From Pseudomonadota bacterium (GTDB lineage Bacteria; Myxococcota_A; UBA9042; CAIXZC01), in contig JBDRIT010000013.1 of assembly GCA_043815665.1 (NCBI GenBank), positions 1 to 39,744 of the forward strand: a stretch of DNA of 39,744 nucleotides, given 5' to 3'. Position 1 is the first letter of the stretch. Every line of letters starts with the position of its first letter. Shown here one piece after another: positions 8,165-39,608 of the stretch. Position numbers and translations under genes: made by a program. The notes beneath the pieces were generated by a model. The model saw only the letters and a program-made list of their open reading frames with translations. It was not told where the DNA came from and did no database searches.

Positions 8165-9111
8165 GACGCGCCCTCCGTCTTCTGGGCCAGGGTCTTCTCC
8201 ACCAGGCGCTCCACCTGCCGCAGCGCGCTCCGGGCGGAGTCCGGCGTGGGCTCCAGCTTGGCGAACTTCACCAGGTCGAAGTCACCCAGCAGGACCACCA
8301 CCTCCTCCAGGATCATCCCCTCCATGCGCACCCGCTTGAGCCGCTGGGTCAGCTCCGTGGTGGTGAGGTCCATGGAGTCGAAGCCGAAGCGGCCCCCCAG
8401 GTACTCCCGGAGGGTCTCCGAGAGCTCGGTGTAGTAGGCGGCGAAGGCGCCCTTCTCCAGGAGGTCCGACGCGGCCAGTCGCATCAGCCGTGCCCGTGCC
8501 CGCTCGTGGGGGGGGATCGGCGGCGGCGGCGGGGGCCGGCGGTGGAGGCGGCGCCAGCGGATCACCGCGAGGGTCGTGGCGGTGGCCGTCACGGCCACCC
8601 CGAGGATGATCAGGGCCCAAACCAGCACCCAGTGGGTCTCGGCCAGGGGCACCGGCGGCACCGGCGCCGCGGGGGGCGGGTCCACCTCCGTGGGGAAGTG
8701 TGTCCCGGTGTGGAACCGTACCTTGGGCACGGCGACGCCGACCTCGCCCCCCGCCGGCAGCTCGAAGCGCAGGCGCTGGGCGGGGATCCGGATCCAGCCG
8801 ACCCCCGCGACCCGCATGGGCACGGTGAGATCGTAGCGGACGTGGTCTCCCGCCAGGACCTCGCGCTGCAAGGAGATCTGATCGCGGAGCAGCAGGAGAT
8901 CCTCGGGGACGTCCAGGCCCTCGGGGGGCTTCATGCGGACCCCCGCGGGGACGTCTACCCGCACATGCCACTCCACGTCGTCCCCCACGGTGGGGTCCTC
9001 GGGCATGTCCACCCAGACCGCGGGCTTGAGGTCGCTGCCCGTCGCGGGCTCCTGGGCCAGCGCGGGCAGCGCGGCGAGGAGCAGGAGCGTGGCCAGGAGG
9101 TGTTTCATCAA
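8161..9111 (-). CDS. Membrane protein of the MoxR/Bat operon (signal peptide, extracytoplasmic domain, TM, Pro-rich linker, DUF4381-like cytoplasmic tail)
   Basis: 316 aa with a signal peptide (MMKHLLATLLLLAALPALA), a TM (WVLVWALIILGVAVTATATTLAVI), then PPPPPPIPP and a C-terminal helical domain. Its position between DUF58 and BatA matches the slot usually taken by a DUF4381 protein. Confidence 0.45.
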   Translation of the reverse strand: MMKHLLATLLLLAALPALAQEPATGSDLKPAVWVDMPEDPTVGDDVEWHVRVDVPAGVRMKPPEGLDVPEDLLLLRDQISLQREVLAGDHVRYDLTVPMRVAGVGWIRIPAQRLRFELPAGGEVGVAVPKVRFHTGTHFPTEVDPPPAAPVPPVPLAETHWVLVWALIILGVAVTATATTLAVIRWRRLHRRPPPPPPIPPHERARARLMRLAASDLLEKGAFAAYYTELSETLREYLGGRFGFDSMDLTTTELTQRLKRVRMEGMILEEVVVLLGDFDLVKFAKLEPTPDSARSALRQVERLVEKTLAQKTEGAS

Positions 9112-25971: not shown

Positions 25972-26892
25972 CTACTCCGTCTTCCCTTTCTCGATCTCGG
26001 CCTTGATCCGCGCCATCTCCTTCTGCCCCACCTCGACGAAGGGCTTCTCGCTCTCCAGGCGGCCGGCGACCTCCACGTAGCGGCCCCAGATGTCCAGGGC
26101 CTTGGCGAGCTCTCCGGCCTCCTCGTAGGCGTAGGCCAGGTTGTAGAGGGCCTCGGGGTAGCGGCTCTTCAGCTCCACGGACCGCTCCAGGGCCTCGATC
26201 TCCTTGGGCAGGTCCCCGAGCTTGTGCCAGGCCAGGGCCAGGTTGTAGCTGGCCTTGTAGAAGGACGGGCGCTTCTCCAGCGCGGCCTCGTAGGCCGCGA
26301 CCTCCTTGCGGATCATGGCCTCCCTGGCGGCGGCCTCCTCGGTCGTCTCGGCCTTCTTGCCGTAGGCGATGCCCAGGTTGTAGTGGATGTCCGGAACGTC
26401 CCGGGTGAGGGTCAGGGCCTTGCTGTAGGTCTCGATGGCCTCGTCCAGGCGCTCCATGCGGGCCAGGAGGATCCCCAGGTTCACCAGCCCGTCCAGGGCC
26501 TCGGGCTCGTGCTCGAGGGTGCGCTGGTACTCCGCGACGGCCTCCTCGTACTGGCCCTCGTCCTCCAGGGCCAGGGCCAGATTGTAGTGGGCCCTGGAGT
26601 ATGTCGGGTCCAGCTCCAGGGCCTTGCGGTAGGCGTCCTTCTCCTTGTCGTACTGCCGCAGCTGGCCGTAGGCCGCGCCGAGGTTGTACCAGGCCTCCTT
26701 GAAGTCGTCCCGCTGCTCGATCGCGGCGCGGTAGAGCCCCACCGCCTCGCGGTATTCGCCCTGGACGAAGAGGTCGTTGGCCTTGCGGAAGTTGTCCTCG
26801 GGGGAGCGCTCCTCCTGCGCGGCCGCGAGGGCCGGTGCGAGGAGCAGCCAGAGGGCCGCCGCGATCCCGAGGTACCGAATGCCTGTGTTCAT
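25972..26892 (-). CDS. Secreted TPR-repeat protein
   Basis: 306 aa with a signal peptide (MNTGIRYLGIAAALWLLLAPALAAA) and multiple TPR units (AWYNLGAAY, AHYNLALAL, IHYNLGIAY, ASYNLALAW, ALYNLAYAY). Confidence 0.7.
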   Translation of the reverse strand: MNTGIRYLGIAAALWLLLAPALAAAQEERSPEDNFRKANDLFVQGEYREAVGLYRAAIEQRDDFKEAWYNLGAAYGQLRQYDKEKDAYRKALELDPTYSRAHYNLALALEDEGQYEEAVAEYQRTLEHEPEALDGLVNLGILLARMERLDEAIETYSKALTLTRDVPDIHYNLGIAYGKKAETTEEAAAREAMIRKEVAAYEAALEKRPSFYKASYNLALAWHKLGDLPKEIEALERSVELKSRYPEALYNLAYAYEEAGELAKALDIWGRYVEVAGRLESEKPFVEVGQKEMARIKAEIEKGKTE

Positions 26893-27005
26893 CGAGGTCC
26901 GTCCCTGCCGTCGACCGCCAGTCTACCAGTCTGTTGAGTTATAGCGGGAGTCCCACCAGGATGTCAACCGACGGCCCCCTCCCCCAGGATCTCGGCACAT
27001 TGGGT

Positions 27006-27033
27006 TTGCACGCGGCGGAGCCGGGTCTATACT
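27006..27033 (+). promoter_or_regulatory. Candidate sigma70-type promoter for relA (TTGCAC-16-TATACT), followed by a 5' UTR hairpin GGACTCC...GGAGTCC at 27039-27069
   Basis: Read directly from the sequence. It is located 40-70 nt upstream of the GTG start at 27074. Confidence 0.35.
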
Positions 27034-27073
27034 GTCCCGGACTCCGCGGCTGCGGGGAGGGGGGAGTCCGAAC

Positions 27074-29254
27074 GTGCTCAAGCTGGAACAGATCCTGTCT
27101 TCCCTCCAGGAGTACCACCCCGGCGCGGACGTGGACCTGATCAAGGCTGCGTACCTCTACGCGTTCGAGAAGCACCAGGGCCAGAAGCGGCAGTCGGGCG
27201 AGCCCTACATCATCCACCCCCTGAGCGTGGCCCAGATCGTCACCACCCTGAAGCTGGACGAGGAGGCCATCGCGGCGGCACTGCTCCACGACGTGGTGGA
27301 GGACACGGAGGCGTCCGCGGCGGACATCAAGGAGCGGTTCGGGGAGCGGGTCGCGGTCCTGGTGGACGGGGTCACCAAGCTGTCCAAGATGAGCTTCTCC
27401 AGCCAGGAGGAGCGTCAGGCCGAGAACTTCCGCAAGATGATGATGGCCATGTCCCAGGACATCCGCGTGATCCTGGTGAAGCTCGCGGACCGCCTCCACA
27501 ACATGAAGACCCTGGACTACAAGGCCCGGGCCATGGGGGGCATGGAGAGCGCCCAGCGCATCGCCCGGGAGACCATGGAGATCTATGCGCCCCTGGCCAA
27601 TCGCCTGGGCATCCATGGGATCAAGTCCCAACTCGAGGACCTCTCGTTCCAATACCTCAACGCCGAGGACTGGGTCGAGATCAATAAAAAACTCTCGCGG
27701 CGGAAGCGGGAGAACCTGCGCTTCATCGACCTGGTCAAGGGTATCCTGGGCAACGAGCTCAAGGCCGCGGGCTACACCGCCGAGCTCGACGGGCGCATGA
27801 AGCACGTCTACAGCATCTGGCGCAAGATGCAGTCCCAGCGGATCCCCTTCGAGGAGGTCTACGACATCGTCGCGTTCCGGGCCATCGTCGGGCAGGTCAA
27901 CGAGTGCTGGCACATCCTCGGCATCGTCCACCAGCTCTGGAAGCCCATCCCCGGCCGGTTCCGGGACTACATCGACCTGCCGAAGCCCAACGGCTACCGC
28001 TCGCTCCACACCTCGGTCATCGGGCCCAACGGCGAGCCGATGGAGATCCAGATCCGGACCCGGGAGATGCACGAGCAGGCCGAGCGCGGCATCGCCGCCC
28101 ACTGGCGCTACAAGGAGTCGGGGCCCGTGAGGCGCCCCGACGAGGAACGGATCAAGATGCTCAAGGATCTCCTGGAGGGGATCCGCGAGCTCCACAAGGA
28201 GACCTCTTCCTCCAGGGAGTTCCTCTCCACGGTGAAGGAGGACCTCTTCGGAGACGAGATCTTCGTCTTCACCCCCAAGGGCGACGTCAATGTCTTCCCC
28301 CGGGGCGCGACGCCGGTGGACTTCGCCTACTCGATCCACTCCGAGGTGGGGCACCACTGCACCGGGGCCAAGGTCAACGGGACCATGGTGCCCCTGTCCT
28401 ACCCCCTCCACAGCGGCGACATCGTCCAGATCCTGACCTCCCCGTCCCAGGCGCCCAACAGCGATTGGCTCAAGTTCGTCCGGACGGGCCGGGCCAAGAC
28501 CAAGATCCGGGCGGTCTTCCGCCTGGAGCGGCGCGGTCGGTCGCTGGAGATCGGTCGGGCCCTCCTGGAGAAGGAGTTCAAGAAGCGGGGCCTGTCCTTC
28601 AACAAGCTCCACAAGAAGGGGGAGCTCCAGCGGGCCGCGGAGGAGCTCCGGGCCGAGGCGGAGGAGGAGCTCATCGTTCGGGTCGGGGCCTCGAAGATCA
28701 CCCCGGAGCAGGTCCTCGGGGTGGTGGCTCCGGAGACCCTGGACAAGGGGCTGACCCCGGAGGAGGAGGTGCGCCCCTCGGGGATCTCCGGTCTGATCAA
28801 TCGCATCATGCCCGATGCGTCGGGGCGGGTCCTGGTGGGCGGGGAGGGGGACATCATGACCCACTTCGCGCGGTGCTGCGCGCCCCTGCCTGGAGACAGC
28901 CTCGTGGGCCACGTGAACCGGGCCCACGGGATCACCGTGCACCGGCAGGACTGCAAGCAGGTGGAGGACGCGGATCCCGACCGCATCGTGGACGTGGCCT
29001 GGGATCGCAAGGCCGGCGGCGACCGCACCGTCCGGCTCCGGGTCCTCTGCAACGATCAGCCGGGGATGCTCGCCGCGATGACCCAGGTCTTCACCAACCT
29101 CGGCGCCAACATCATGAGCGCCAACTGCAAGGGCAGCGGCGACAAGGGCGCGGTGAACATCTTTGAGATCTCCGTCTCCTCGGTGAGCCACCTGAAGTCC
29201 GTCACCCGCGCACTCGAGCGGATCCCGGGGATCCGCTCCGTCCAGCGCGCCTGA
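27074..29254 (+). CDS. relA: Bifunctional (p)ppGpp synthetase/hydrolase, RelA/SpoT homologue
   Basis: 726 aa with a GTG start and GGGAGG RBS. Domains are HD (HDVVEDT), synthetase (RFRDYIDLPKPNGYRSLHTSV, GEPMEIQIRT), TGS and ACT. Confidence 0.95.
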   Translation: MLKLEQILSSLQEYHPGADVDLIKAAYLYAFEKHQGQKRQSGEPYIIHPLSVAQIVTTLKLDEEAIAAALLHDVVEDTEASAADIKERFGERVAVLVDGVTKLSKMSFSSQEERQAENFRKMMMAMSQDIRVILVKLADRLHNMKTLDYKARAMGGMESAQRIARETMEIYAPLANRLGIHGIKSQLEDLSFQYLNAEDWVEINKKLSRRKRENLRFIDLVKGILGNELKAAGYTAELDGRMKHVYSIWRKMQSQRIPFEEVYDIVAFRAIVGQVNECWHILGIVHQLWKPIPGRFRDYIDLPKPNGYRSLHTSVIGPNGEPMEIQIRTREMHEQAERGIAAHWRYKESGPVRRPDEERIKMLKDLLEGIRELHKETSSSREFLSTVKEDLFGDEIFVFTPKGDVNVFPRGATPVDFAYSIHSEVGHHCTGAKVNGTMVPLSYPLHSGDIVQILTSPSQAPNSDWLKFVRTGRAKTKIRAVFRLERRGRSLEIGRALLEKEFKKRGLSFNKLHKKGELQRAAEELRAEAEEELIVRVGASKITPEQVLGVVAPETLDKGLTPEEEVRPSGISGLINRIMPDASGRVLVGGEGDIMTHFARCCAPLPGDSLVGHVNRAHGITVHRQDCKQVEDADPDRIVDVAWDRKAGGDRTVRLRVLCNDQPGMLAAMTQVFTNLGANIMSANCKGSGDKGAVNIFEISVSSVSHLKSVTRALERIPGIRSVQRA

Positions 29255-29258
29255 GCCC

Positions 29259-30257
29259 ATGACCTCGCGCGGGGACCGGCCACCCGAGGGGGGCCACCGC
29301 CGGGACGAGCGCCGCCTCCACATCTGCATGGGCGAGGTCTGCAACAACAACTGCCTCTTCTGCATGGACAAGGGGGGTCGCCTCCGCCAGCGGCATCTCG
29401 AGCTCATCAACCCGGAGGAGACCCTCCGGTTCATGGAGGAGAACCGGGACCTGGGGGAGATCCTCTTCACCGCGGGGGAGCCCACCCTCCACGAGGACCT
29501 GGTCCGGTACATCGGGCACGCCAGGCGCCTGGGCTTCTACCGGATCGGGTTGATCACCAACGGCCGCCGCCTGGCCTACCACGCCTACGCGGAGGGCCTC
29601 CTGCGCGCGGGCCTCAACAGCGTGGTCCTCTCCATCCATGGCCACCAGGCGCGCCTCCACGACGGGCAGACCCGGACCCCCGGCAGCTTCGAGCAGACCG
29701 CGGCGGGCCTCCGCACCCTGTCGGATCTCAAGGCCGGGTGGGAGCTCCACCTCTCCACCTCCACCGTGGTGAACCGACGGAACGTCCCCCACCTCGACGG
29801 GATCCTCGCCTTCCTTCTGGCCTTCCCCCTGGACCAGATCGTGCTCAACGCGGTCCAGCCCCTCGGCCGCACCGCCGATCTCTTCAATCAGCTCGTCCCA
29901 CGGTACTCCGAGATCGTCGATGCCCTCTCCGTCGCGCTGGAGCATGTCCCGGAGGACCAGCGGGCCCGGATCCGTCTCCTGGACGTGCCCCCCTGCCTCC
30001 TGACCCGCCTCCCCGAGGAGACCCGGGGCTGGGTGGAGGAGCACCAGCACTTCGAGCGGCGGGGCGGTCTCCCTCGGGGCCTGGGGGACGCGGCGCTACG
30101 CAAGGGAACCCGCGGCGTGGTGCGCAAGAAGGACTTCGATGCGATCCAGCGCGCGTTCGGCCCGCCCTGCGAGGGCTGCCCCCTCCGGCCCCGCTGTGAC
30201 GGCGTCTGGCGGCGCTATGCGGAGGAGTACGGCTGGGACGAGTTCGGTGCCCCCTGA
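29259..30257 (+). CDS. Radical SAM enzyme, paralogue 1 of 4 (CNNNCLFC; C-terminal C...CxxCx5C)
   Basis: 332 aa. The motif VCNNNCLFCMDKGG lies near the N-terminus with TAGEPTL about 30 aa later. The C-terminus has PPCLL...PPCEGCPLRPRCDGVWRRYAEEYGWDEF. The ATG is 5 nt after the relA stop. Confidence 0.8.
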   Translation: MTSRGDRPPEGGHRRDERRLHICMGEVCNNNCLFCMDKGGRLRQRHLELINPEETLRFMEENRDLGEILFTAGEPTLHEDLVRYIGHARRLGFYRIGLITNGRRLAYHAYAEGLLRAGLNSVVLSIHGHQARLHDGQTRTPGSFEQTAAGLRTLSDLKAGWELHLSTSTVVNRRNVPHLDGILAFLLAFPLDQIVLNAVQPLGRTADLFNQLVPRYSEIVDALSVALEHVPEDQRARIRLLDVPPCLLTRLPEETRGWVEEHQHFERRGGLPRGLGDAALRKGTRGVVRKKDFDAIQRAFGPPCEGCPLRPRCDGVWRRYAEEYGWDEFGAP

Positions 30258-30348
30258 CGCCCTCCCCCCTGGCGTGGGGGCCCGGAAGTTGTTATTAAGC
30301 CACCAGGGGTTCCGATCTCGAGAGGATCCCGGAGGAGAGGGAGCGACC

Positions 30349-31311
30349 ATGGCCGACGAGCGGACGGCGCAATCCACCGAGCGGGTAGACGTCAAGACCG
30401 GCTTCAACTGCAACAACCGGTGCTTCTTCTGCGTTCAGGGGAACAAGCGCGACCTCTACGGCAACAAGTCCACCGAGGAGGTCAAGGAGACCCTGCGCGC
30501 CGCGGTGCAGGACTCCGACTCCATCGTATTCACCGGCGGCGAGGTCACGATCCGGCCCGACTTCATCGAGCTGGTCCGCTTCGCCAGGGAGCTCGGCTTC
30601 CGCAGCATCCAGGTCCAGACCAACGGCCGGATGCTGGCCTACAAGAAATTCGCAGAGCAGACCGTGGCGGCCGGGGCCAACGAGTTCTCCCCCGCGATCC
30701 ACGGCCACACGGCAGAGCTCCACGACTACCTGACCCGCTGCGCGGGGAGCTTCAAGCAGAGCGTGCAGTCGATCCGGAACCTCAAGGAGCTGGGCCAGCG
30801 GGTGATCACCAACTCCGTGATCACCCGCTCCAACTTCCGGCACCTCCCGGAGCTGGCCGCGCTCCTGGTCCGCCTCGGCGTCGATCAGTACCAGTTCGCG
30901 TTCGTCCACGCCCTGGGCACCGCACAGGAGAACTTCAGCCGGATCGTCCCCCGCATGACCCTGGTCGAGCCCTACGTGAAGCGCGGCATCCAGGTCGGCG
31001 TCCAGGCGGGCCGCATCGTCCTCACCGAGGCGATCCCCTACTGCTTCATGTCCGGGTACGAGGAGCACGTCGCCGAGCGCTTCATGCCCCGCACCAAGAT
31101 CTTCGATGCGAAGATGGTTGTGCAGGACTACACGAGCTACCGCTGGACCGAGGGCAAGGGCAAGGGGCCGCCTTGCAAGGACTGCACCTGGAATCCGGTC
31201 TGTGAGGGCCCCTGGAAGGACTACGTGGACGGCTATGGCTGGGACGAGTTCCTCCCCCGCACCGACGCGGTGACCATCACCCTCCCGGAGAGCCGGGGCA
31301 AGGGCTGCTGA
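30349..31311 (+). CDS. Radical SAM enzyme, paralogue 2 of 4 (CNNRCFFC; C-terminal C...CxxCx5C)
   Basis: The start is taken at the ATG at 30349 (RBS GGAGGAGAGGGAG). The ORF 30139 extension is GC-rich read-through. Motifs are FNCNNRCFFCVQG, TGGEVTI and PPCKDCTWNPVCEGPWKDYVDGYGWDEF. 320 aa. Confidence 0.8.
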   Translation: MADERTAQSTERVDVKTGFNCNNRCFFCVQGNKRDLYGNKSTEEVKETLRAAVQDSDSIVFTGGEVTIRPDFIELVRFARELGFRSIQVQTNGRMLAYKKFAEQTVAAGANEFSPAIHGHTAELHDYLTRCAGSFKQSVQSIRNLKELGQRVITNSVITRSNFRHLPELAALLVRLGVDQYQFAFVHALGTAQENFSRIVPRMTLVEPYVKRGIQVGVQAGRIVLTEAIPYCFMSGYEEHVAERFMPRTKIFDAKMVVQDYTSYRWTEGKGKGPPCKDCTWNPVCEGPWKDYVDGYGWDEFLPRTDAVTITLPESRGKGC

Positions 31312-32972
31312 TGCCAGGCGACACCACCGCCGAGATCAAGGAGTCCGCGGCCCAGGAGAAGCGCCAGTGGGTCCGGCTCACGAAGCTCTGCAACAACCGC
31401 TGCACCTTCTGCCTCGACTCCGAGGCCCAGGACGGGACCATGGTGCCCGCGGACGCGGTGCGGCGACGGATCATCGAGGGCCGCGAGGCCGGCGCGACCC
31501 GCCTGATCCTCAGCGGCGGGGAGCCCACGATCCACCCGGACTACCTCTCCTTCATCGAGGCGGGGCGCCACGCGGGCTACCGCTGGGTCCAGACCATCTC
31601 CAACGGCAGGATGTTCTCCTACAAGAAATTCGCGGACCGGGCCCTGGCCGCGGGGCTGGACGAGGCCACCTTCTCCATCCACGGGCACACCCCCGGGATC
31701 CACGATCGGCTCACCGGGGTCCCCGGGTCCTTCGACCAGGCCCTGCGGGGGCTGAAGAACCTCCTGGGACGGTGCGTGACCAACGTGGACGTGGTGCTCA
31801 ACAAGCAGAACGTCCCCCACCTGCGGGAGCTCCTCGAGTTCTTCATGGACCTGGGGATCCACGAGTTCGACCTGCTCCACACCGTCCCCTTCGGCCTGGC
31901 CTGGTGCGAGAACCGGGACGCGCTGTTCTACGACCCCGCGGTGCTCTCGGCGGATCTCCGGCGTGCCTTCGAGCTGCGCCACCGGGACGGCATCTACATG
32001 TGGACCAACCGCCTCCCCGCCCGCTACCTCGAGGGGGCCGAGGACCTGATCCAGGATCCCAAGAAGATCCACGACGAGGTCCGGGGCCGCTGGGATCACT
32101 TCCAGACCTGGGTCGACACCGGGGAGCCGCTGCCCTGCCGGGACGAGCGCTGCCCCTTCTGCTTCCTTGAGGGGTTCTGTGACCGCCTTGGGGACGTGGT
32201 GGAGGCGCGCCTCGGACGGCGGGCCGCGGGGGACGGCGCGACCCGGGTCCGGGCGGACTGTGGGAGGGGCTTCAGCCCCGACGGCGGACACGGGACCTCC
32301 TGGCCTGCGGATCTCGCGCTGCCCGAGGCGATCCGGCTGGAAGTCATCGCGGCGACCCCCGAGGACGCGGAGGCCTGGCTGGAGGCCTTCCCCGGCATGG
32401 TGGAGCATCTCACCCTGGTGGTGGCGCCCTGGGCGACGGATCCGGGTCCCTGGGCCGGGCTCCTCGCACGGGCCGACTCTGTCCGCCTGGGGCCCGACGC
32501 GCCGGACGCGGGAGCCGACGCGATCCTTGCCGCCTGGCGGGCTGCGCCGCGGCGGGGGCGCCTGGAGGTGCCCGCGCTCATCGGGCTCGGGGACATCCTG
32601 GACACGGGGGACGGGGACGAGGCCTTCTACGTCCCCGTGCGGGAGCGCCTCACCGTGGCCATGGCCCGGGATCTGGACCTGGACGGGGTCCGGGCGCTGC
32701 ATCTCCGTACCGGGCGCCCCGTCGAGGGGCTGCCCCCCTGTCTGGACACCGGTGCGACCCCGCCCCCGGCGTTGGCGGAGCTGGATCTCACCCTCCTCGA
32801 CCCGGCCGGGCGACTGGACATGATCCGCTACACCGACGACTATATCGCCCGGTGGTACATGGTGAAGAGCCACCGGTGCGACGGCTGCCCGCGCACCGGG
32901 GCGTGCCCCGGGATCCACATCTCCGGGGCCCGGCGCTTCGGGCTCGCGGCGCTCACGCCCGTCGAGGAGTGA
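31311..32972 (+). CDS. Radical SAM enzyme, paralogue 3 of 4, with a ~250 aa C-terminal extension (CNNRCTFC; extra CRDERCPFCFLEGFC; terminal CDGCPRTGAC)
   Basis: 553 aa. Its ATG overlaps the previous TGA (tgATG). Motifs are LCNNRCTFCLD and SGGEPTI. A mid-protein Cys cluster and an Ala/Asp/Pro-rich low-complexity region lie between the core and the terminal CxxCx5C. Confidence 0.75.
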   Translation: MPGDTTAEIKESAAQEKRQWVRLTKLCNNRCTFCLDSEAQDGTMVPADAVRRRIIEGREAGATRLILSGGEPTIHPDYLSFIEAGRHAGYRWVQTISNGRMFSYKKFADRALAAGLDEATFSIHGHTPGIHDRLTGVPGSFDQALRGLKNLLGRCVTNVDVVLNKQNVPHLRELLEFFMDLGIHEFDLLHTVPFGLAWCENRDALFYDPAVLSADLRRAFELRHRDGIYMWTNRLPARYLEGAEDLIQDPKKIHDEVRGRWDHFQTWVDTGEPLPCRDERCPFCFLEGFCDRLGDVVEARLGRRAAGDGATRVRADCGRGFSPDGGHGTSWPADLALPEAIRLEVIAATPEDAEAWLEAFPGMVEHLTLVVAPWATDPGPWAGLLARADSVRLGPDAPDAGADAILAAWRAAPRRGRLEVPALIGLGDILDTGDGDEAFYVPVRERLTVAMARDLDLDGVRALHLRTGRPVEGLPPCLDTGATPPPALAELDLTLLDPAGRLDMIRYTDDYIARWYMVKSHRCDGCPRTGACPGIHISGARRFGLAALTPVEE

Positions 32973-32973
32973 T

Positions 32974-33906
32974 ATGGCGAATCTCGGCTACATCCAGGTC
33001 ACCCGCACCTGCAACCAGGCTTGCATCTTCTGCTCCAACCCCGAGCTGGATCGCGAGGCCACCCTGGCGGACGTCGAGGGCCTGGTGGACGACTTCGTGG
33101 CGCGGGGTTACGACGGGGTCATCATCACCGGCGGGGAGCCGACCCTCTTCTGCCAGCTCCCCGAGCTCATCGCGTACGCGACCTCGAAGGGCCTGGGCGT
33201 CCGGATGATCACCAACGGGCAGAAGACCTGCGACATGGACTTCCTGCGGCCCCTGTACGACGCGGGGCTCCGCCATGTCCACCAGTCCGTCTACACCCAC
33301 GATCCCGAGATCCAGGCCCGCCTCACCGGCAGGGCCGAGTCCCACGTGAACCTCTGCGCAAGCCTGGACAACTTCGGCGCGCTGGAGATGCAGGTGGACG
33401 TGAACATCACCATCCAGAGGTACAACGCCAACCACCTGGATCGGGTGGTGGTCTGGCTCCTGGAGCGGTGGCCCTTCATTCACCACGTGGTCTTCAACAA
33501 CCTCGACCCCACCTCGGACCGGGTGGCCGAGAACAGGGACGTGGTGCACAAGCTCGCGGACATGGAGCCCTTCCTGTTCCGGGCCCTCTCGTACCTCGAG
33601 CGCCACGGGCGCACCTACCGGGTGGAGCGGGTCCCCCTGTGCTACATGACCGAGTTCGCCCACGCGTCCACCGAGACCCGCAAGATCGTCAAGGGGGAGG
33701 AGCGCATCGTGCACTTCCTCGACGAGAAGGGCATGGTGCGCCAGACGGACTGGGAGCACGGCAAGGCCGACGTCTGCGCGGGCTGCTCCCTGACGTCGAT
33801 CTGCGCGGGGCTCTTCGAGATGGACAACTTCTATCAGAGCAGCGAGCTCTATCCGCTCTTCGTCCCCAAGGAGCCCATCGTCCGCCGGATCCTGAAGGGG
33901 AGATGA
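32974..33906 (+). CDS. Radical SAM enzyme, paralogue 4 of 4 (CNQACIFC; C-terminal C...CxxCx5C)
   Basis: 310 aa with the ATG 1 nt after the previous stop and a GAGGAG RBS. Motifs are TCNQACIFCSNPE, TGGEPTL and VPLCYM...VCAGCSLTSICAGLFEMDNFY. Confidence 0.8.
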   Translation: MANLGYIQVTRTCNQACIFCSNPELDREATLADVEGLVDDFVARGYDGVIITGGEPTLFCQLPELIAYATSKGLGVRMITNGQKTCDMDFLRPLYDAGLRHVHQSVYTHDPEIQARLTGRAESHVNLCASLDNFGALEMQVDVNITIQRYNANHLDRVVVWLLERWPFIHHVVFNNLDPTSDRVAENRDVVHKLADMEPFLFRALSYLERHGRTYRVERVPLCYMTEFAHASTETRKIVKGEERIVHFLDEKGMVRQTDWEHGKADVCAGCSLTSICAGLFEMDNFYQSSELYPLFVPKEPIVRRILKGR

Positions 33907-33916
33907 GGTCCACCCC

Positions 33917-34492
33917 ATGATCGAGGTCGGCGGCGTCTCCCTCTGGATCGATGACCTCATGCTCCCCGTGGCCCTGGCGATCGCGGCGATCACCGGGTGG
34001 TCGGATCTCAAGCCCATGGTGCCCCACCTCCTGGGGCGGGTCCCCTACGAAAAAAGTCCCGGGGGTGGGCGGATCTCGAACCGGGTGCTCCTCCTGGGCC
34101 TCGCGCTGGGTTTCGCGTGGCATCTCTTCGCGTGGGCCTGGCACGCGGGCGGGCTGGGGCTCTACTCCTTCGACATGCTCCAGGCCAAGCCCATGCCGTA
34201 CTGGGTCTATGTGGCCCTGAACACGGGGCTCGCCTTCGGCCTGGGCTTCCTGCTGTGGACCCTCGGCCTCTGGGCCGCAGGCGACGGGAAGCTCTTCGGC
34301 CTCCTGGCCTTCCTGCTGCCGCTCTCGGTCTACCGCAACAACTACCTGGACTGGTTCCCGTCCTTCGTCCTCTTCTTCAACACCTTCATCGCGGTCTTCG
34401 CGATCCTGGTGGTGGAGTTTGCGGCGCGGCTGGCAGTGCGGGTGCGGGGGGGGGACCGGGTTACCTCGGGGAGGTCATGGAGAAGGGCGTGA
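33917..34492 (+). CDS. Polytopic membrane protein with prepilin-peptidase (A24 aspartic peptidase, CpaA/TadV-like) motifs
   Basis: 191 aa with 4-5 hydrophobic segments. Candidate catalytic Asp motifs are GWSDLKP (first Asp) and AAGDGKLFGLLAF (GDxKL, second Asp), spaced as in A24 peptidases. The ATG lies 10 nt after the rSAM4 stop. Confidence 0.4.
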   Translation: MIEVGGVSLWIDDLMLPVALAIAAITGWSDLKPMVPHLLGRVPYEKSPGGGRISNRVLLLGLALGFAWHLFAWAWHAGGLGLYSFDMLQAKPMPYWVYVALNTGLAFGLGFLLWTLGLWAAGDGKLFGLLAFLLPLSVYRNNYLDWFPSFVLFFNTFIAVFAILVVEFAARLAVRVRGGDRVTSGRSWRRA

Positions 34493-35130
34493 AGGCCCTC
34501 TCGGAGAACAAGGTCCGGGTCCTGAAGATCATCATCCTCTTCCTGGCGATCTTCACCACCATCCGGATCCTGCGACACTTCCTCCGGGTGGCCCTGGACA
34601 TGGGCCTCGGGGACATCAACAAGACCATGGTCTACGTGATCCTCTTCATGATCTTCCGGCCCCTCACCCGGCTGCTGGAGTACAAGCCCACGTTCTGGGT
34701 GGCCCTCTCCATCGTCGCAGGCTATGCGGGCTGGGCCTTCCTCTTCGACCCCACGGGGGAGGCGAAGTACCACCTGGTGGACATCGGCACCCTCTCCCTC
34801 TCGATCATCGTCTTCCGCTACACGTACGACGCGTACCTCAAGGCCACGGACGAGCGGCGGATCCCCGTCGCCGATCTGCGACCGAAGATGATCCTCTCCG
34901 ACGACTCCGTACGGAAGTTCAAGGAGCGCACCGAGTTCTACCAGCGCTGGCTCAAGCCCCTGGAGCCCGACGGGCTCCGCCCCAATCAGGTCGAGGCGAT
35001 CCAGAGCTGGTACGGGGAGAACGATCTCGACGGCACCGTGGGCATCGCCCGCACCCTCCCCTTCGCGCCGGCCCTCTTCTTCGGCACCCTCATCACCATC
35101 GTGGTGCGCGGGCTGCTCCTCGTCTTCTAG
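34476..35130 (+). CDS. Membrane protein of unknown function (possibly fused to the preceding ORF if the G9 tract 34444-34452 is G10)
   Basis: 218 aa with an ATG at 34476 preceded by GGGGAGGT. It has several TM helices and a cytoplasmic C-terminal region. It overlaps the previous ORF by 17 nt in another frame. Confidence 0.45.
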
Positions 35131-35671
35131 GCGGGGCACCGCCAAGGGCGAGCTCGTCCGTCACCCGGAAGGGGTCCTTGCCGGATCGCAGGAGGACGGT
35201 GATCCGGTCCACGGTCCACCGCGCCGGGGTCCAGGTGGCCGCCAGCTCCCGGAGCATCGCGTCGCGCTGCCGGGCCCCGGTCGCCTCCCCGACGGTGATG
35301 TGCGGGGTGTACCCCCCGGGGTACCGGGTCTGGTCGTCGCAGGTGGGGACGCGCCCCAGCAGGGCGTCGTGCAGAGCGATCACCGGCGCCGGGGGATCGG
35401 GGGCCAACCAGAGGGTGCTCACGTCGTCGGGTTGGGAGAACCAGGAGAACCGGGACAGCTCCAGGGTGAAGGCCGGAATCCCCGCGCAGAGCCTGCGCAG
35501 ATCCGGCAGCAGGGCTCCGATCTCGACCGCCTCCACGAAGGGATAGAGCAGGGTCACGTGGGCCGGGACCCAGAAGACGTTCCGATCATGTCGCCAGCGG
35601 ATGTCCTCGATGCGCGACCGGAGCGCAGGCGGGGGGACGAGGGCGATGGTGGTCTGGTCGGACTTCCACAT
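35093..35671 (-). CDS. 2H phosphoesterase superfamily protein (LigT / 2'-5' RNA ligase-like)
   Basis: 192 aa with two H-x-T-x motifs (HVTLLYPF and HITVGEAT) at the expected spacing. Its 3' end overlaps the convergent membrane-protein gene by 38 nt. Confidence 0.55.
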   Translation of the reverse strand: MWKSDQTTIALVPPPALRSRIEDIRWRHDRNVFWVPAHVTLLYPFVEAVEIGALLPDLRRLCAGIPAFTLELSRFSWFSQPDDVSTLWLAPDPPAPVIALHDALLGRVPTCDDQTRYPGGYTPHITVGEATGARQRDAMLRELAATWTPARWTVDRITVLLRSGKDPFRVTDELALGGAPPRRRGAARAPRW

Positions 35672-35907
35672 GGTTCGGGTATCCCCCGGAGCGGGGGCGC
35701 TGTCAAGTGACTGGATCGAGACGGGCGTGATCGAAACAGCGGAAACGTGGGGACCAGGGCGAGGAGGGCCTCGATGGCGTCGGTGTCCCGGGTGAGGGGG
35801 ACCACGCCGAAGATCCGGAGCACGTCGCCAACCGCCGCTTCGTCTGTCCCGCCGGGCTGGAGGAGCATCCGACCCGGGCCATCACGGCGGCCATCAGCAA
35901 CAGCGCC

Positions 35908-38975: not shown

Positions 38976-39008
38976 GGTGCCACCTTTAAACGGATGAGGA
39001 GAATGAAC

Positions 39009-39608
39009 ATGCGGACTCTGGTGATCATGCTGGCCCTGGCCGTGATGGCCCTCGGCTGCGGTGGCGAGAAGAAGGCCGACGAGAAGAAGGCCGGCGAAAA
39101 GAAGACGGAGAAGAAGGCCGAGAAGAAGGCCGAAGAGAAGAAGATCGAGGAGCCTGCTGCCGAGGAGGCTCCCGCTGCCGAGGAGGCTCCCGCCGCTGAG
39201 GAGGCTCCCGCCGCTGAGGAGGCTCCCGCCGCTGAGGAGGCTCCCGCCGCCGAGGAGGCTCCCGCCGCCGAGGAGGCTCCCGCCGCCGAGGAGGCTCCCG
39301 CCGCCGAGGAGGCTCCCGCCGCCGAGGGGGCTCCCGCCGCCGAGGAGGCCAAGGGCGAGGGGACCGGCAGCGTCTGTGACGCGTACGCAGCCTGCTGCAT
39401 GGCCTACGCCGACGCGCTGGGCGGAGTCCAGGGCGTGCCCGAGTCCGCGGTCCAGGCGACCAAGGACGGCTGCAAGCAGATCGAGCAGCTCAAGACCATG
39501 GGCGCCGCCGCGGCGCAGGCTTGCCAGCAGGGCCTCGACGCCATGAAGCAGGCCGGCGAGGCCTACAAGGCCATGCCCGGGTTCGTCTGGCCCGAGGCGT
39601 GCAACTAG
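39009..39608 (+). CDS. Lipoprotein with a Lys/Glu-rich segment, (EEAPAA)x10 tandem repeat and a Cys-containing C-terminal domain
   Basis: Start at MRTLVIMLALAVMALGC (lipobox ALGC) with a GAGGAG RBS 7 nt upstream. The perfect peptide repeat EEAPAA is followed by a roughly 90 aa domain containing 6 Cys. Confidence 0.6.
   Translation: MRTLVIMLALAVMALGCGGEKKADEKKAGEKKTEKKAEKKAEEKKIEEPAAEEAPAAEEAPAAEEAPAAEEAPAAEEAPAAEEAPAAEEAPAAEEAPAAEEAPAAEGAPAAEEAKGEGTGSVCDAYAACCMAYADALGGVQGVPESAVQATKDGCKQIEQLKTMGAAAAQACQQGLDAMKQAGEAYKAMPGFVWPEACN
39149..39340 (+). repeat. 18 nt tandem repeat GAGGAGGCTCCCGC(C/T)GC(C/T), about 10.5 copies, in frame within the CDS
   Basis: Read directly from the sequence. Only third-position C/T wobble differences separate the copies. 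Confidence 0.9.

Follow-up and report, generated by a model that had tools for sequence, protein, structure and literature searches.

A conserved module of four HxsC-like radical-SAM genes and an A24-type membrane protease gene related to His-Xaa-Ser systems

His-Xaa-Ser (HXS) systems were predicted in 2011. The classical system, HxsD-HxsB-HxsC-HxsA (TIGR03976-03979), protects against phages by blocking the entry of phage DNA; HxsB, HxsC (which has two Fe-S sites) and HxsD mature HxsA, which is processed at its N-terminus and altered by +8 Da on an SHRSS motif, and the mature product is a periplasmic anti-phage effector (PMC13128918). These four components make up >99.8% of classical systems, with no A24-type protease listed, and the 2026 account of this one HXS type as a phage-entry barrier has the effector depend on modification by radical S-adenosylmethionine (rSAM) enzymes and on N-terminal processing by an unidentified activity (PMC13128918). 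Here we describe a five-gene module in a 39,744-bp stretch of bacterial DNA (the window), which has 69% GC and spans one entire contig, JBDRIT010000013.1. The module consists of four anciently diverged rSAM paralogues of the HxsC/HxsC4 family, encoded behind relA/spoT, and a divergent A24 (GxGD) membrane protease. It is conserved but rare, and in other phyla both families adjoin genuine HXS components. An earlier sequence-only reading of this DNA had found no named system to which the arrangement could be assigned; it is related to HXS systems, with HxsC4 or HxsC as top matches here and with HxsA3/HxsA4, HxsD and HxsB neighbours above their cut-offs elsewhere.

The module resembles the classical system in that its rSAM enzymes are of the HxsC lineage and have a second Cys cluster motif, and, on our reading, in that a His-Xaa-Ser repeat protein would be matured in steps that include N-terminal processing, giving a product outside the cytoplasm. 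It differs in having four HxsC-like paralogues, all under the HxsC cut-off, and an extra A24-type protease; in having neither HxsD nor an HxsA-type precursor in the window, with HxsB (TIGR03978) absent from the 25 best NCBIfam matches of each rSAM protein; and in lying in a housekeeping context rather than a defence island. The second point of comparison is the variant HXS systems, which are represented by NCBIfam models only (HxsA3, NF038309; HxsA4, NF038313; HxsC4, NF038332); a literature search found no paper on HxsA3, HxsA4 or HxsC4. Like these, the window has an rSAM protein that aligns over the full HxsC4 model (rSAM1, 294 bits), and HxsA3 or HxsA4 precursors in Clostridia, candidate phyla radiation (CPR) bacteria, DPANN archaea and other lineages have members of this protease family and rSAM2-4 orthologues beside them. 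Unlike them, the window proteins score under the cut-offs, and the Myxococcota-type module has no linked precursor or HxsD.

Gene layout and the four radical-SAM enzymes

Four same-strand rSAM paralogues do follow relA/spoT and precede an A24-type membrane protease gene, as had been read from the sequence alone. The evidence given in brackets includes G+C content at third codon positions (GC3), and open reading frames are abbreviated ORFs.

27074-29254, + strand: relA/spoT, bifunctional (p)ppGpp synthetase/hydrolase (TIGR00691, GC3)
29259-30257, + strand: rSAM1, HxsC4-like radical-SAM enzyme, 332 aa (PF04055, GC3)
30258-30348, + strand: rSAM1-rSAM2 spacer, 91 nt (conserved blocks and a GGAGG-type ribosome-binding site)
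30349-31311, + strand: rSAM2, 320 aa, the most conserved of the four paralogues (PF04055, GC3)
31311-32972, + strand: rSAM3, 553 aa (PF04055, GC3)
32974-33906, + strand: rSAM4, 310 aa (PF04055, GC3)
33917-35130, + strand: divergent A24-family GxGD intramembrane aspartyl protease gene, about 404 aa with a C-terminal extension
33917-34492 and 34477-35130, + strand: the overlapping ORFs into which the protease gene is split in the window by a -1 frameshift
34446-34454, + strand: frameshift site, a G9 homopolymer with one base fewer than in homologues

In-frame GC3 of 0.91-0.96 for relA/spoT, rSAM1-4 and both membrane ORFs supports genes on the + strand. The TGATG overlap of rSAM2 and rSAM3, the 1 nt between rSAM3 and rSAM4 and the 10 nt from rSAM4 to the first membrane ORF agree with the junctions given earlier; the gap from relA to rSAM1 is 4 nt rather than 5 nt, and the 91-nt spacer between rSAM1 and rSAM2 had gone unmentioned. 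The rSAM2 ATG at 30349 is preceded by a GGAGG-type ribosome-binding site and is the true start; a longer rSAM2 ORF from 30139 was rejected as spurious.

All four rSAM proteins pass PF04055 (59.8-78.4 bits against a cut-off of 29.5, with rSAM2 at 78 and rSAM4 at 60). Their scores for rSAM1 to rSAM4 in order were 294, 181, 111 and 52 bits with HxsC4 (NF038332, cut-off 500) and 80.0, 99.3, 86.5 and 90.0 bits with HxsC (TIGR03977, cut-off 267.9), making HxsC4 the top NCBIfam match of rSAM1-3 and HxsC that of rSAM4. MoaA, PqqE, NirJ, Ahb and similar families score far more weakly. The well-characterised families that the sequence-only reading had named as possible refutations, QueE, MoaA and anSME, do not apply, their scores being far under the cut-offs. 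The NCBI annotation of rSAM1, rSAM2 and rSAM4 (MFH1529361.1, MFH1529362.1 and MFH1529364.1) goes no finer than 'radical SAM protein'.

The CxxxCxxC motif ligates the radical-SAM [4Fe-4S] cluster. When the four window paralogues were aligned with seven relatives, the invariant positions were CxxxCxxC, G-E-x-T, N101, a Pro (mostly as part of PxC) and CxxCx5CxG. The motifs of the individual enzymes are as follows.

rSAM1: CNNNCLFC (29340-29363), AGEPT, VPPC (29985-29996), CEGCPLRPRC (30168-30197), YGWDEF
rSAM2: CNNRCFFC, GGEVT, IPYC, CKDCTWNPVC, YGWDEF
rSAM3: besides the rSAM core, an additional CRDERCPFCFLEGFC (32136-32180), an insert of some 200 aa with little conservation, and CDGCPRTGAC (32877-32906) in the C-terminal part
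rSAM4: CNQACIFC, GGEPT, VPLC, CAGCSLTSIC

Several of these motifs had been described too uniformly. GGEPT, reported in each enzyme, holds for rSAM3 and rSAM4, with AGEPT in rSAM1 and GGEVT in rSAM2; the YGWDEF-like tail claimed for three enzymes is exact in rSAM1 and rSAM2 only, rSAM3 having FGLAAL and rSAM4 nothing comparable; and the upstream PxC is found in rSAM1, rSAM2 and rSAM4. In rSAM3 and in its orthologue at locus L045 the PxC cysteine is missing at the homologous position and a Cx4Cx2Cx5C insert is present instead, kept in the L045 orthologue as ECRGERCGYCSLEMFC.

Each enzyme is predicted from these motifs to hold the SAM-cleaving [4Fe-4S] site and a C-terminal Cys motif for one auxiliary cluster, and rSAM3 probably carries a further predicted cluster. 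Only four Cys of the C-terminal pattern (PxC...CxxCx5C) are conserved, which appears compatible with a twitch-type single auxiliary [4Fe-4S] cluster. The enzymes share with the SPASM/twitch maturases (PqqE, SkfB, anSME, BlsE) a partial TIM-barrel rSAM core and a C-terminal Cys-rich region with CxxCx5C, and differ from them in missing the final Cys of CxxCx5Cx3C, in giving no match to SPASM (PF13186) at E<=0.01, in the family-specific YGWDEF tail, and in having no detected PqqD domain or recognition element for ribosomally synthesised and post-translationally modified peptides (RiPPs). The earlier wording, a non-canonical auxiliary-cluster domain, was thus a fair description of this non-SPASM, twitch-like motif. 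In a comparison with PDB sequences the best match was the twitch enzyme BlsE (62 bits, rSAM core only), and the sequence and fold neighbours of the rSAM core, which include BlsE, GDGT-MAS, MoaA and viperin, match the generic core only. Scanned against PADLOC-DB 2.0, the rSAM proteins showed just generic viperin-core similarity (31.6-51.2 bits) and the protease matched nothing. The HxsD hidden Markov model (HMM) found nothing inside the rSAM proteins, ruling out an HxsD domain hidden in the rSAM3 insert.

The A24-type membrane protease

What had been taken for two polytopic membrane ORFs is one gene split by a 1-nt deletion. Relatives encode a single membrane protein of 396-405 aa, two such proteins cover both window ORFs in two frames by tblastn, and in a DNA alignment with loci L001, L008 and L009 the window is one base short in the G9 run at 34446-34454. 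Because both halves keep coding-type composition (GC3 0.92-0.95) and all invariant residues, the frameshift is more likely an assembly error than a recent inactivation. Long G or C homopolymers, which bear on the question of an artefact, lie at 684-699 (G16) and at 11 other sites, for example 2917-2924, 8508-8515 and 34446-34454.

The membrane component is an A24-type GxGD protease. The prepilin-peptidase-like Asp motifs noticed from sequence are real, and the protein has the A24 combination of two catalytic Asp, the second in GxGD, with a C-terminal PFGP-like motif:

33998-34015: WSDLKP, with catalytic candidate D30
34274-34291: AAGDGK, with catalytic candidate D123
35056-35076: LPFAPAL, the C-terminal motif

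In an alignment of 19 family members D30, AGD123xK, P382-F-x-P385 and several Asn, Trp and Pro residues are invariant, and all are present in the window. The window membrane ORFs have no Pfam or NCBIfam match, and PF01478 (Peptidase_A24) also misses the relative P0121; PF01478 does match 6 of the 19 relatives (best E 1.7e-7), and archaeal A24 C-terminal domains match five (Arc_PepC three, Arc_PepC_II two). The membrane protein has an A24/FlaK-like fold, the Foldseek match by itself being below significance. It differs from the described A24 peptidases (PilD and the archaeal FlaK, PDB 3S0X, PibD and EppA) in its extra transmembrane (TM) helices, in a soluble insert between GxGD and PFxP, in being missed by PF01478, and in being encoded in an rSAM operon rather than a pilus operon; the leader of its family's putative substrates in other phyla, PKIKKxIxxFLxxEEGKISK, is likewise not a canonical class III signal.

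The family is large. Among 1.84 billion proteins it has 1,466 cluster representatives at E<=1e-10 and 560 at the stricter E<=1e-30; just two representatives are Myxococcota-type. Neither an NCBIfam model nor a Pfam model specific to the family is present in the libraries searched, and a scan of viral contigs found no member. In the Myxococcota proteases TM1 is followed by a 17-aa insert, and their identity to the HxsA-linked proteases is only 24-30%.

HXS loci of other phyla and the Myxococcota-type loci

With the protease profile, a scan of one genome for each GTDB species yielded 80 loci, and a metagenome scan yielded 80; across these sets and across phyla the protease family and HxsC-like rSAM enzymes co-occur. 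Seventeen genome loci were Myxococcota-type and 63 were not. The loci outside the Myxococcota type come from CPR/Patescibacteria, Omnitrophica, DPANN and other archaea, Clostridia (among them C. drakei and C. ljungdahlii) and Poribacteria, and mostly have 1-9 HxsC-like rSAM genes adjoining the protease gene. Clustering of the non-rSAM ORFs of these distant loci yielded a small protein with an N-terminal leader, one hydrophobic helix and C-terminal His-Xaa-Ser repeats. The leader reads (I/L)PK(I/L)KKxIxxFLxxEEGxISK, with Pro and Gly invariant, and the tails (HGSHGS..., HSSHSS...) often end in GQW or SY. Such a leader-TM-(HxS)n ORF lay within 10 kb at 42 of the 63 non-Myxococcota genome loci and at none of the 17 Myxococcota-type loci; for HxsD the counts were 40 of 63 and 0 of 17.

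NCBIfam models identify these neighbours as HXS components. Precursors scored 105.8 bits with HxsA3 (cut-off 65) and 70.5 and 64.1 bits with HxsA4 (cut-off 55), and neighbouring proteins scored 62.6-73.1 with HxsD (cut-off 50), 317 with HxsC (cut-off 268) and 378-526 with HxsB (cut-off 370). The gene order in C. drakei is HxsA3, HxsD, A24-like protease, HxsC (the 317-bit match) and HxsB (526 bits), and the archaeal loci L055 and L046 combine the protease, HxsD, HxsB (378 and 446 bits), HxsA4 and four or five HxsC4-like rSAM genes.

The window paralogues have counterparts in HxsA4-linked arrays (L023, L045, L136 and L138). The identities are 25-34% for rSAM1, 44-55% for rSAM3 and 44-47% for rSAM4; rSAM2 is 55-59% identical to its orthologues at L023 and L045 and 25-31% at L136 and L138. 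Over CPR and DPANN arrays rSAM2 orthologues are 44-59% identical, and rSAM4 orthologues 44-52% in CPR, Omnitrophica and other arrays. The window paralogues are only 22-32% identical to each other. The four are therefore ancient, and elsewhere they are part of HxsA4-type systems.

In low-GC CPR-type contigs (L131, L133, L134, L137, L146, L148, L157, L029, L039, L047, L050) the A24-like protease gene is directly preceded by 7-9 tandem HxsC-like rSAM paralogues, a very heavy investment in genomes this small, and several of these arrays have no HxsA within the fetched flanks. Embedded in CPR rSAM arrays is a protein of 67-80 aa with the motif Y(I/L)(I/V)TY(K/R)SxEHFEV(L/V)GWV (L024 8865-9068, L028 6699-6923, L029 8762-8971, L039 7999-8217, L050 8730-8972), which has no family match and may have an accessory or chaperone role. 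Proteins with the leader and TM helix and without HxS repeats were also found (L043 11082-11471, L048 2501-4174 on the - strand, L057 5230-5511, L078 15648-16241, L119 90-638, L120 662-1900), their tails being Cys-rich, Thr/Ser-rich or Tyr/Asp/Gly-rich. These proteins suggest that the HxsA-type leader is a general targeting signal for the A24-like protease.

The four rSAM genes and the protease gene are conserved as a module across the Myxococcota-type loci. The full colinear order rSAM1-2-3-4-protease was found at 10 of the 17 genome loci, and metagenomes add about 20 Myxococcota-type loci, eight of them complete and one at 48% GC. The rSAM1 family occurs mostly in metagenome-assembled genomes (MAGs) of uncultured Myxococcota or 'Deltaproteobacteria'; the source contig is labelled 'Pseudomonadota bacterium' and its nearest relatives 'uncultured Myxococcales'. 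Apart from the rSAM and protease genes, all-against-all clustering of ORFs across the loci found nothing conserved with the Myxococcota module except a KamA-family rSAM gene in one clade. In that clade, the module (rSAMx4, protease and KamA-family rSAM at L005) lies behind a divergent rimP-nusA operon; the KamA-family enzyme, lysine 2,3-aminomutase-like, is encoded directly after the protease (L005 15516-16520, also L010, L012, L013 and L014; TIGR00238, 220 bits against 199). In an Anaeromyxobacter-like clade (L018 5648-9788 and L020 7561-11762, - strand) the protease gene is followed by convergent genes for two more rSAM-like proteins and a protein of about 310 aa. A different cluster at L003 (1-16200 of the 3-Mb contig ERZ25039480) has about ten rSAM genes, two of them rSAM1-like (42-43% identical), no A24-like gene, and genes for a FemAB-like acetyltransferase, a DUF362/ferredoxin-rSAM fusion and an rSAM-methyltransferase fusion.

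Substrate, transcription and alternative explanations

We favour, with moderate confidence, the reading that the module is a lineage-specific, minimal and substrate-unlinked variant of HXS-type maturation of the HxsA3/HxsA4 kind, in which the rSAM enzymes modify a precursor and the A24-like protease removes its leader. The precursor would be encoded elsewhere in the genome and have the conserved N-terminal leader, one TM helix and a C-terminal His-Xaa-Ser run. The four rSAM enzymes would modify it in the cytoplasm, taking one step or site apiece, and it would then insert into the membrane, where the protease would cut from the cytoplasmic side, close to the leader's invariant Gly, and so remove the leader, by analogy with the prepilin and preflagellin peptidases that process class III signal peptides. 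The outcome would be a His-rich peptide that carries the modifications and lies on the membrane or outside it. We infer the identity of the substrate here, the order of the steps and the cleavage site. Multi-step, RiPP-like peptide modification, one of the pathway types first suggested, is the best reading, and the lipid and cofactor alternatives offered beside it found no support.

Several results weigh against this interpretation. All four rSAM proteins miss both the HxsC and the HxsC4 cut-offs, the protease gene is frameshifted in this assembly, and HxsD, the core-complex partner of HxsC in the classical system, is missing from the module. No HxsA-like or HxsD gene lies within ±10 kb of any Myxococcota-type locus (17 genome, about 20 metagenome and 3 further loci); nor does HxsB, although no window-wide HxsB search was made in the window itself. 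A leader-profile search of 5.8 billion proteins returned 88 small DPANN/CPR-type proteins, none recognisably Myxococcota, and the precursor search in this organism was confined to the 39,744-bp contig. Even in the classical system, the radical chemistry is not known to have been worked out.

The absence of a nearby precursor ORF, noted from the sequence alone, was borne out by every search of the window. A six-frame regular-expression search for HxS repeats covered the window and every locus, and gave no match in the former or at Myxococcota-type loci; the same two sets gave no match to the leader HMM or the HxsD HMM, and only off-frame low-complexity noise by tblastn with the Polyangia HxsA4 described below. 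A scan of the window for His-rich stretches turned up just one repeat, the non-coding (GTGACC)n at 50-130. This hexanucleotide tandem repeat (GTGACC/CCGTGA, about 13 copies), at the start of the contig, reads (HG)n in one frame and is of non-coding composition.

Myxococcota do have HxsA4-type precursors. The relatives nearest to the HxsC4 cut-off are P0041, from a Deltaproteobacteria MAG (482 bits), and P0033, from a Polyangia MAG (472 bits), the latter an rSAM1-type enzyme 44% identical to rSAM1. Directly after P0033, and convergent with it, is a gene for a 118-aa HxsA4-type precursor, 'LPPLKRKAKFFLAGEEAGIARRDFL-TM-...CSHGSHGSHGSHGSHGSHGSHGSHGSHASHGSHGSHGSW', with the pattern '...FLAGEEAGIARRD...(HGS)n...HGSW', whose leader matches CPR and archaeal leaders (E 6e-6):

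L169 1188-1544 and L168 1194-1550, - strand: Polyangia HxsA4-type precursor with a diverged leader (PLKRKAKFFLAGEEAGIARRD) and (HGS)n-HGSW

The Polyangia contig opens with the C-terminus of another HxsC-like rSAM protein, and the precursor gene and its HxsC4-like neighbour are followed by genes for a SPASM rSAM, a B12-rSAM, a DegT aminotransferase and a methyltransferase. No ORF comparable to this precursor was found in the window or at any protease-bearing Myxococcota locus.

In the main rival reading, the lack of a linked precursor would be explained if the rSAM enzymes and the protease had been re-targeted in Myxococcota to a different membrane-anchored protein, pilin-like or otherwise bearing a class III signal. 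HxsA and HxsD are unlinked at every Myxococcota-type locus, the Myxococcota proteases are set apart by their insert and low identity to HxsA-linked ones, and the leader-bearing proteins without HxS repeats suggest that the protease family accepts other cargos. We nevertheless consider re-targeting rather unlikely, given rSAM2-4 orthologues of 44-59% identity in HxsA4-linked arrays, a Polyangia MAG that pairs an rSAM1-type enzyme with an HxsA4 precursor, and the lack of any alternative conserved neighbour gene. A pathway to a small molecule, lipid or cofactor, with the membrane protein as scaffold or transporter instead of protease, would fit the missing precursor, the housekeeping context and the BlsE, GDGT-MAS, MoaA and viperin neighbours of the rSAM core; we judge it very improbable. 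That the frameshift is real and the locus a decaying, non-functional remnant seems improbable: the G9 run is one base short against three homologues, but both gene halves retain their GC3 and all invariant catalytic residues, the four rSAM genes are intact, MAG assemblies often get homopolymer lengths wrong, and the contig has other long G/C runs.

Control by the stringent response, which had been proposed from the position next to relA, would make the module a pathway functionally tied to RelA. The upstream gene is a genuine relA/spoT (729.5 bits with TIGR00691 against a cut-off of 499, with HD_4, RelA_SpoT, TGS and ACT domains all there). Within 26800-35800 the only promoter-like match lies upstream of it, at 27005-27033, and no terminator-like site was found, so that relA/spoT is probably co-transcribed with at least rSAM1 and the module is probably read through from the relA promoter. 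The 4-nt relA-rSAM1 gap and its conservation, with the whole relA-rSAMx4-protease layout, at the close relatives L001, L002 and L009 also favour a tie. Yet relA lies upstream of the module only in the window and at those three loci; it does so at none of about 35 other Myxococcota-type loci, where rimP-nusA, pgk-tpiA and large unrelated proteins are among the neighbours on the upstream side. The position behind relA/spoT looks like a local accident of gene order and not a conserved functional link. The rSAM1-rSAM2 spacer, moreover, has two conserved blocks in an alignment of the window with L001 and L009, CCCCTGGCG (30266-30274) and the AT-rich AAGTTGTTATTAAG (30286-30299). The AT-rich block stands in a contig of 69% GC and is a candidate internal promoter that may drive rSAM2 to the protease gene independently, though it was not picked up by a consensus promoter scan; a σ54 promoter was rejected for this spacer because of wrong spacing. 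Because the relA junction is lineage-restricted and the spacer may hold a promoter, we read no functional stringent-response link here, and a pathway tied to RelA is quite improbable.

Lacking a linked precursor, HxsD and HxsB, the window's set of four rSAM genes and a protease gene is a natural minimal case, its substrate being either unlinked or new. It is less exotic than the sequence-only reading held, since a named system exists, yet it points to an undescribed and widespread HXS component: a large, unannotated family of A24-type membrane proteases that is a constant partner of HxsC-like rSAM enzymes in variant HXS systems (Clostridia, CPR bacteria, DPANN archaea, Myxococcota), where the precursors share a conserved leader and TM helix. 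The A24-like protease is a concrete candidate for HXS leader removal, and the enzyme set is suited to studying the radical reactions that act on His/Ser repeats. In some lineages the arrays reach 4-9 rSAM paralogues, a remarkable number for genomes of about 1 Mb. We did not find a protease-centred processing system described in the literature, where no search aimed at an A24-type protease in HXS was made. More tentatively, the A24-like protease may define a leader-dependent processing and sorting system across Bacteria and Archaea, its substrates recognised by the leader and one TM helix and their His-Xaa-Ser tails modified serially by 1-9 HxsC-type rSAM enzymes; the Myxococcota module would then be an orphan branch whose substrate gene has moved or changed class and which is now under the relA promoter.

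The surroundings of the module are an ordinary chromosomal, housekeeping context. Upstream are genes for a TPR protein and GreA, and downstream, convergent with the module, genes for a LigT-like 2H phosphoesterase, a ThiF-family protein and flotillin, followed by a 208-aa ORF without a Pfam match. Towards the contig end, at 38994-39608, is a predicted lipoprotein gene, also without a Pfam match, whose product combines (EEAPAA)n repeats with a Cys-rich C-terminal domain.

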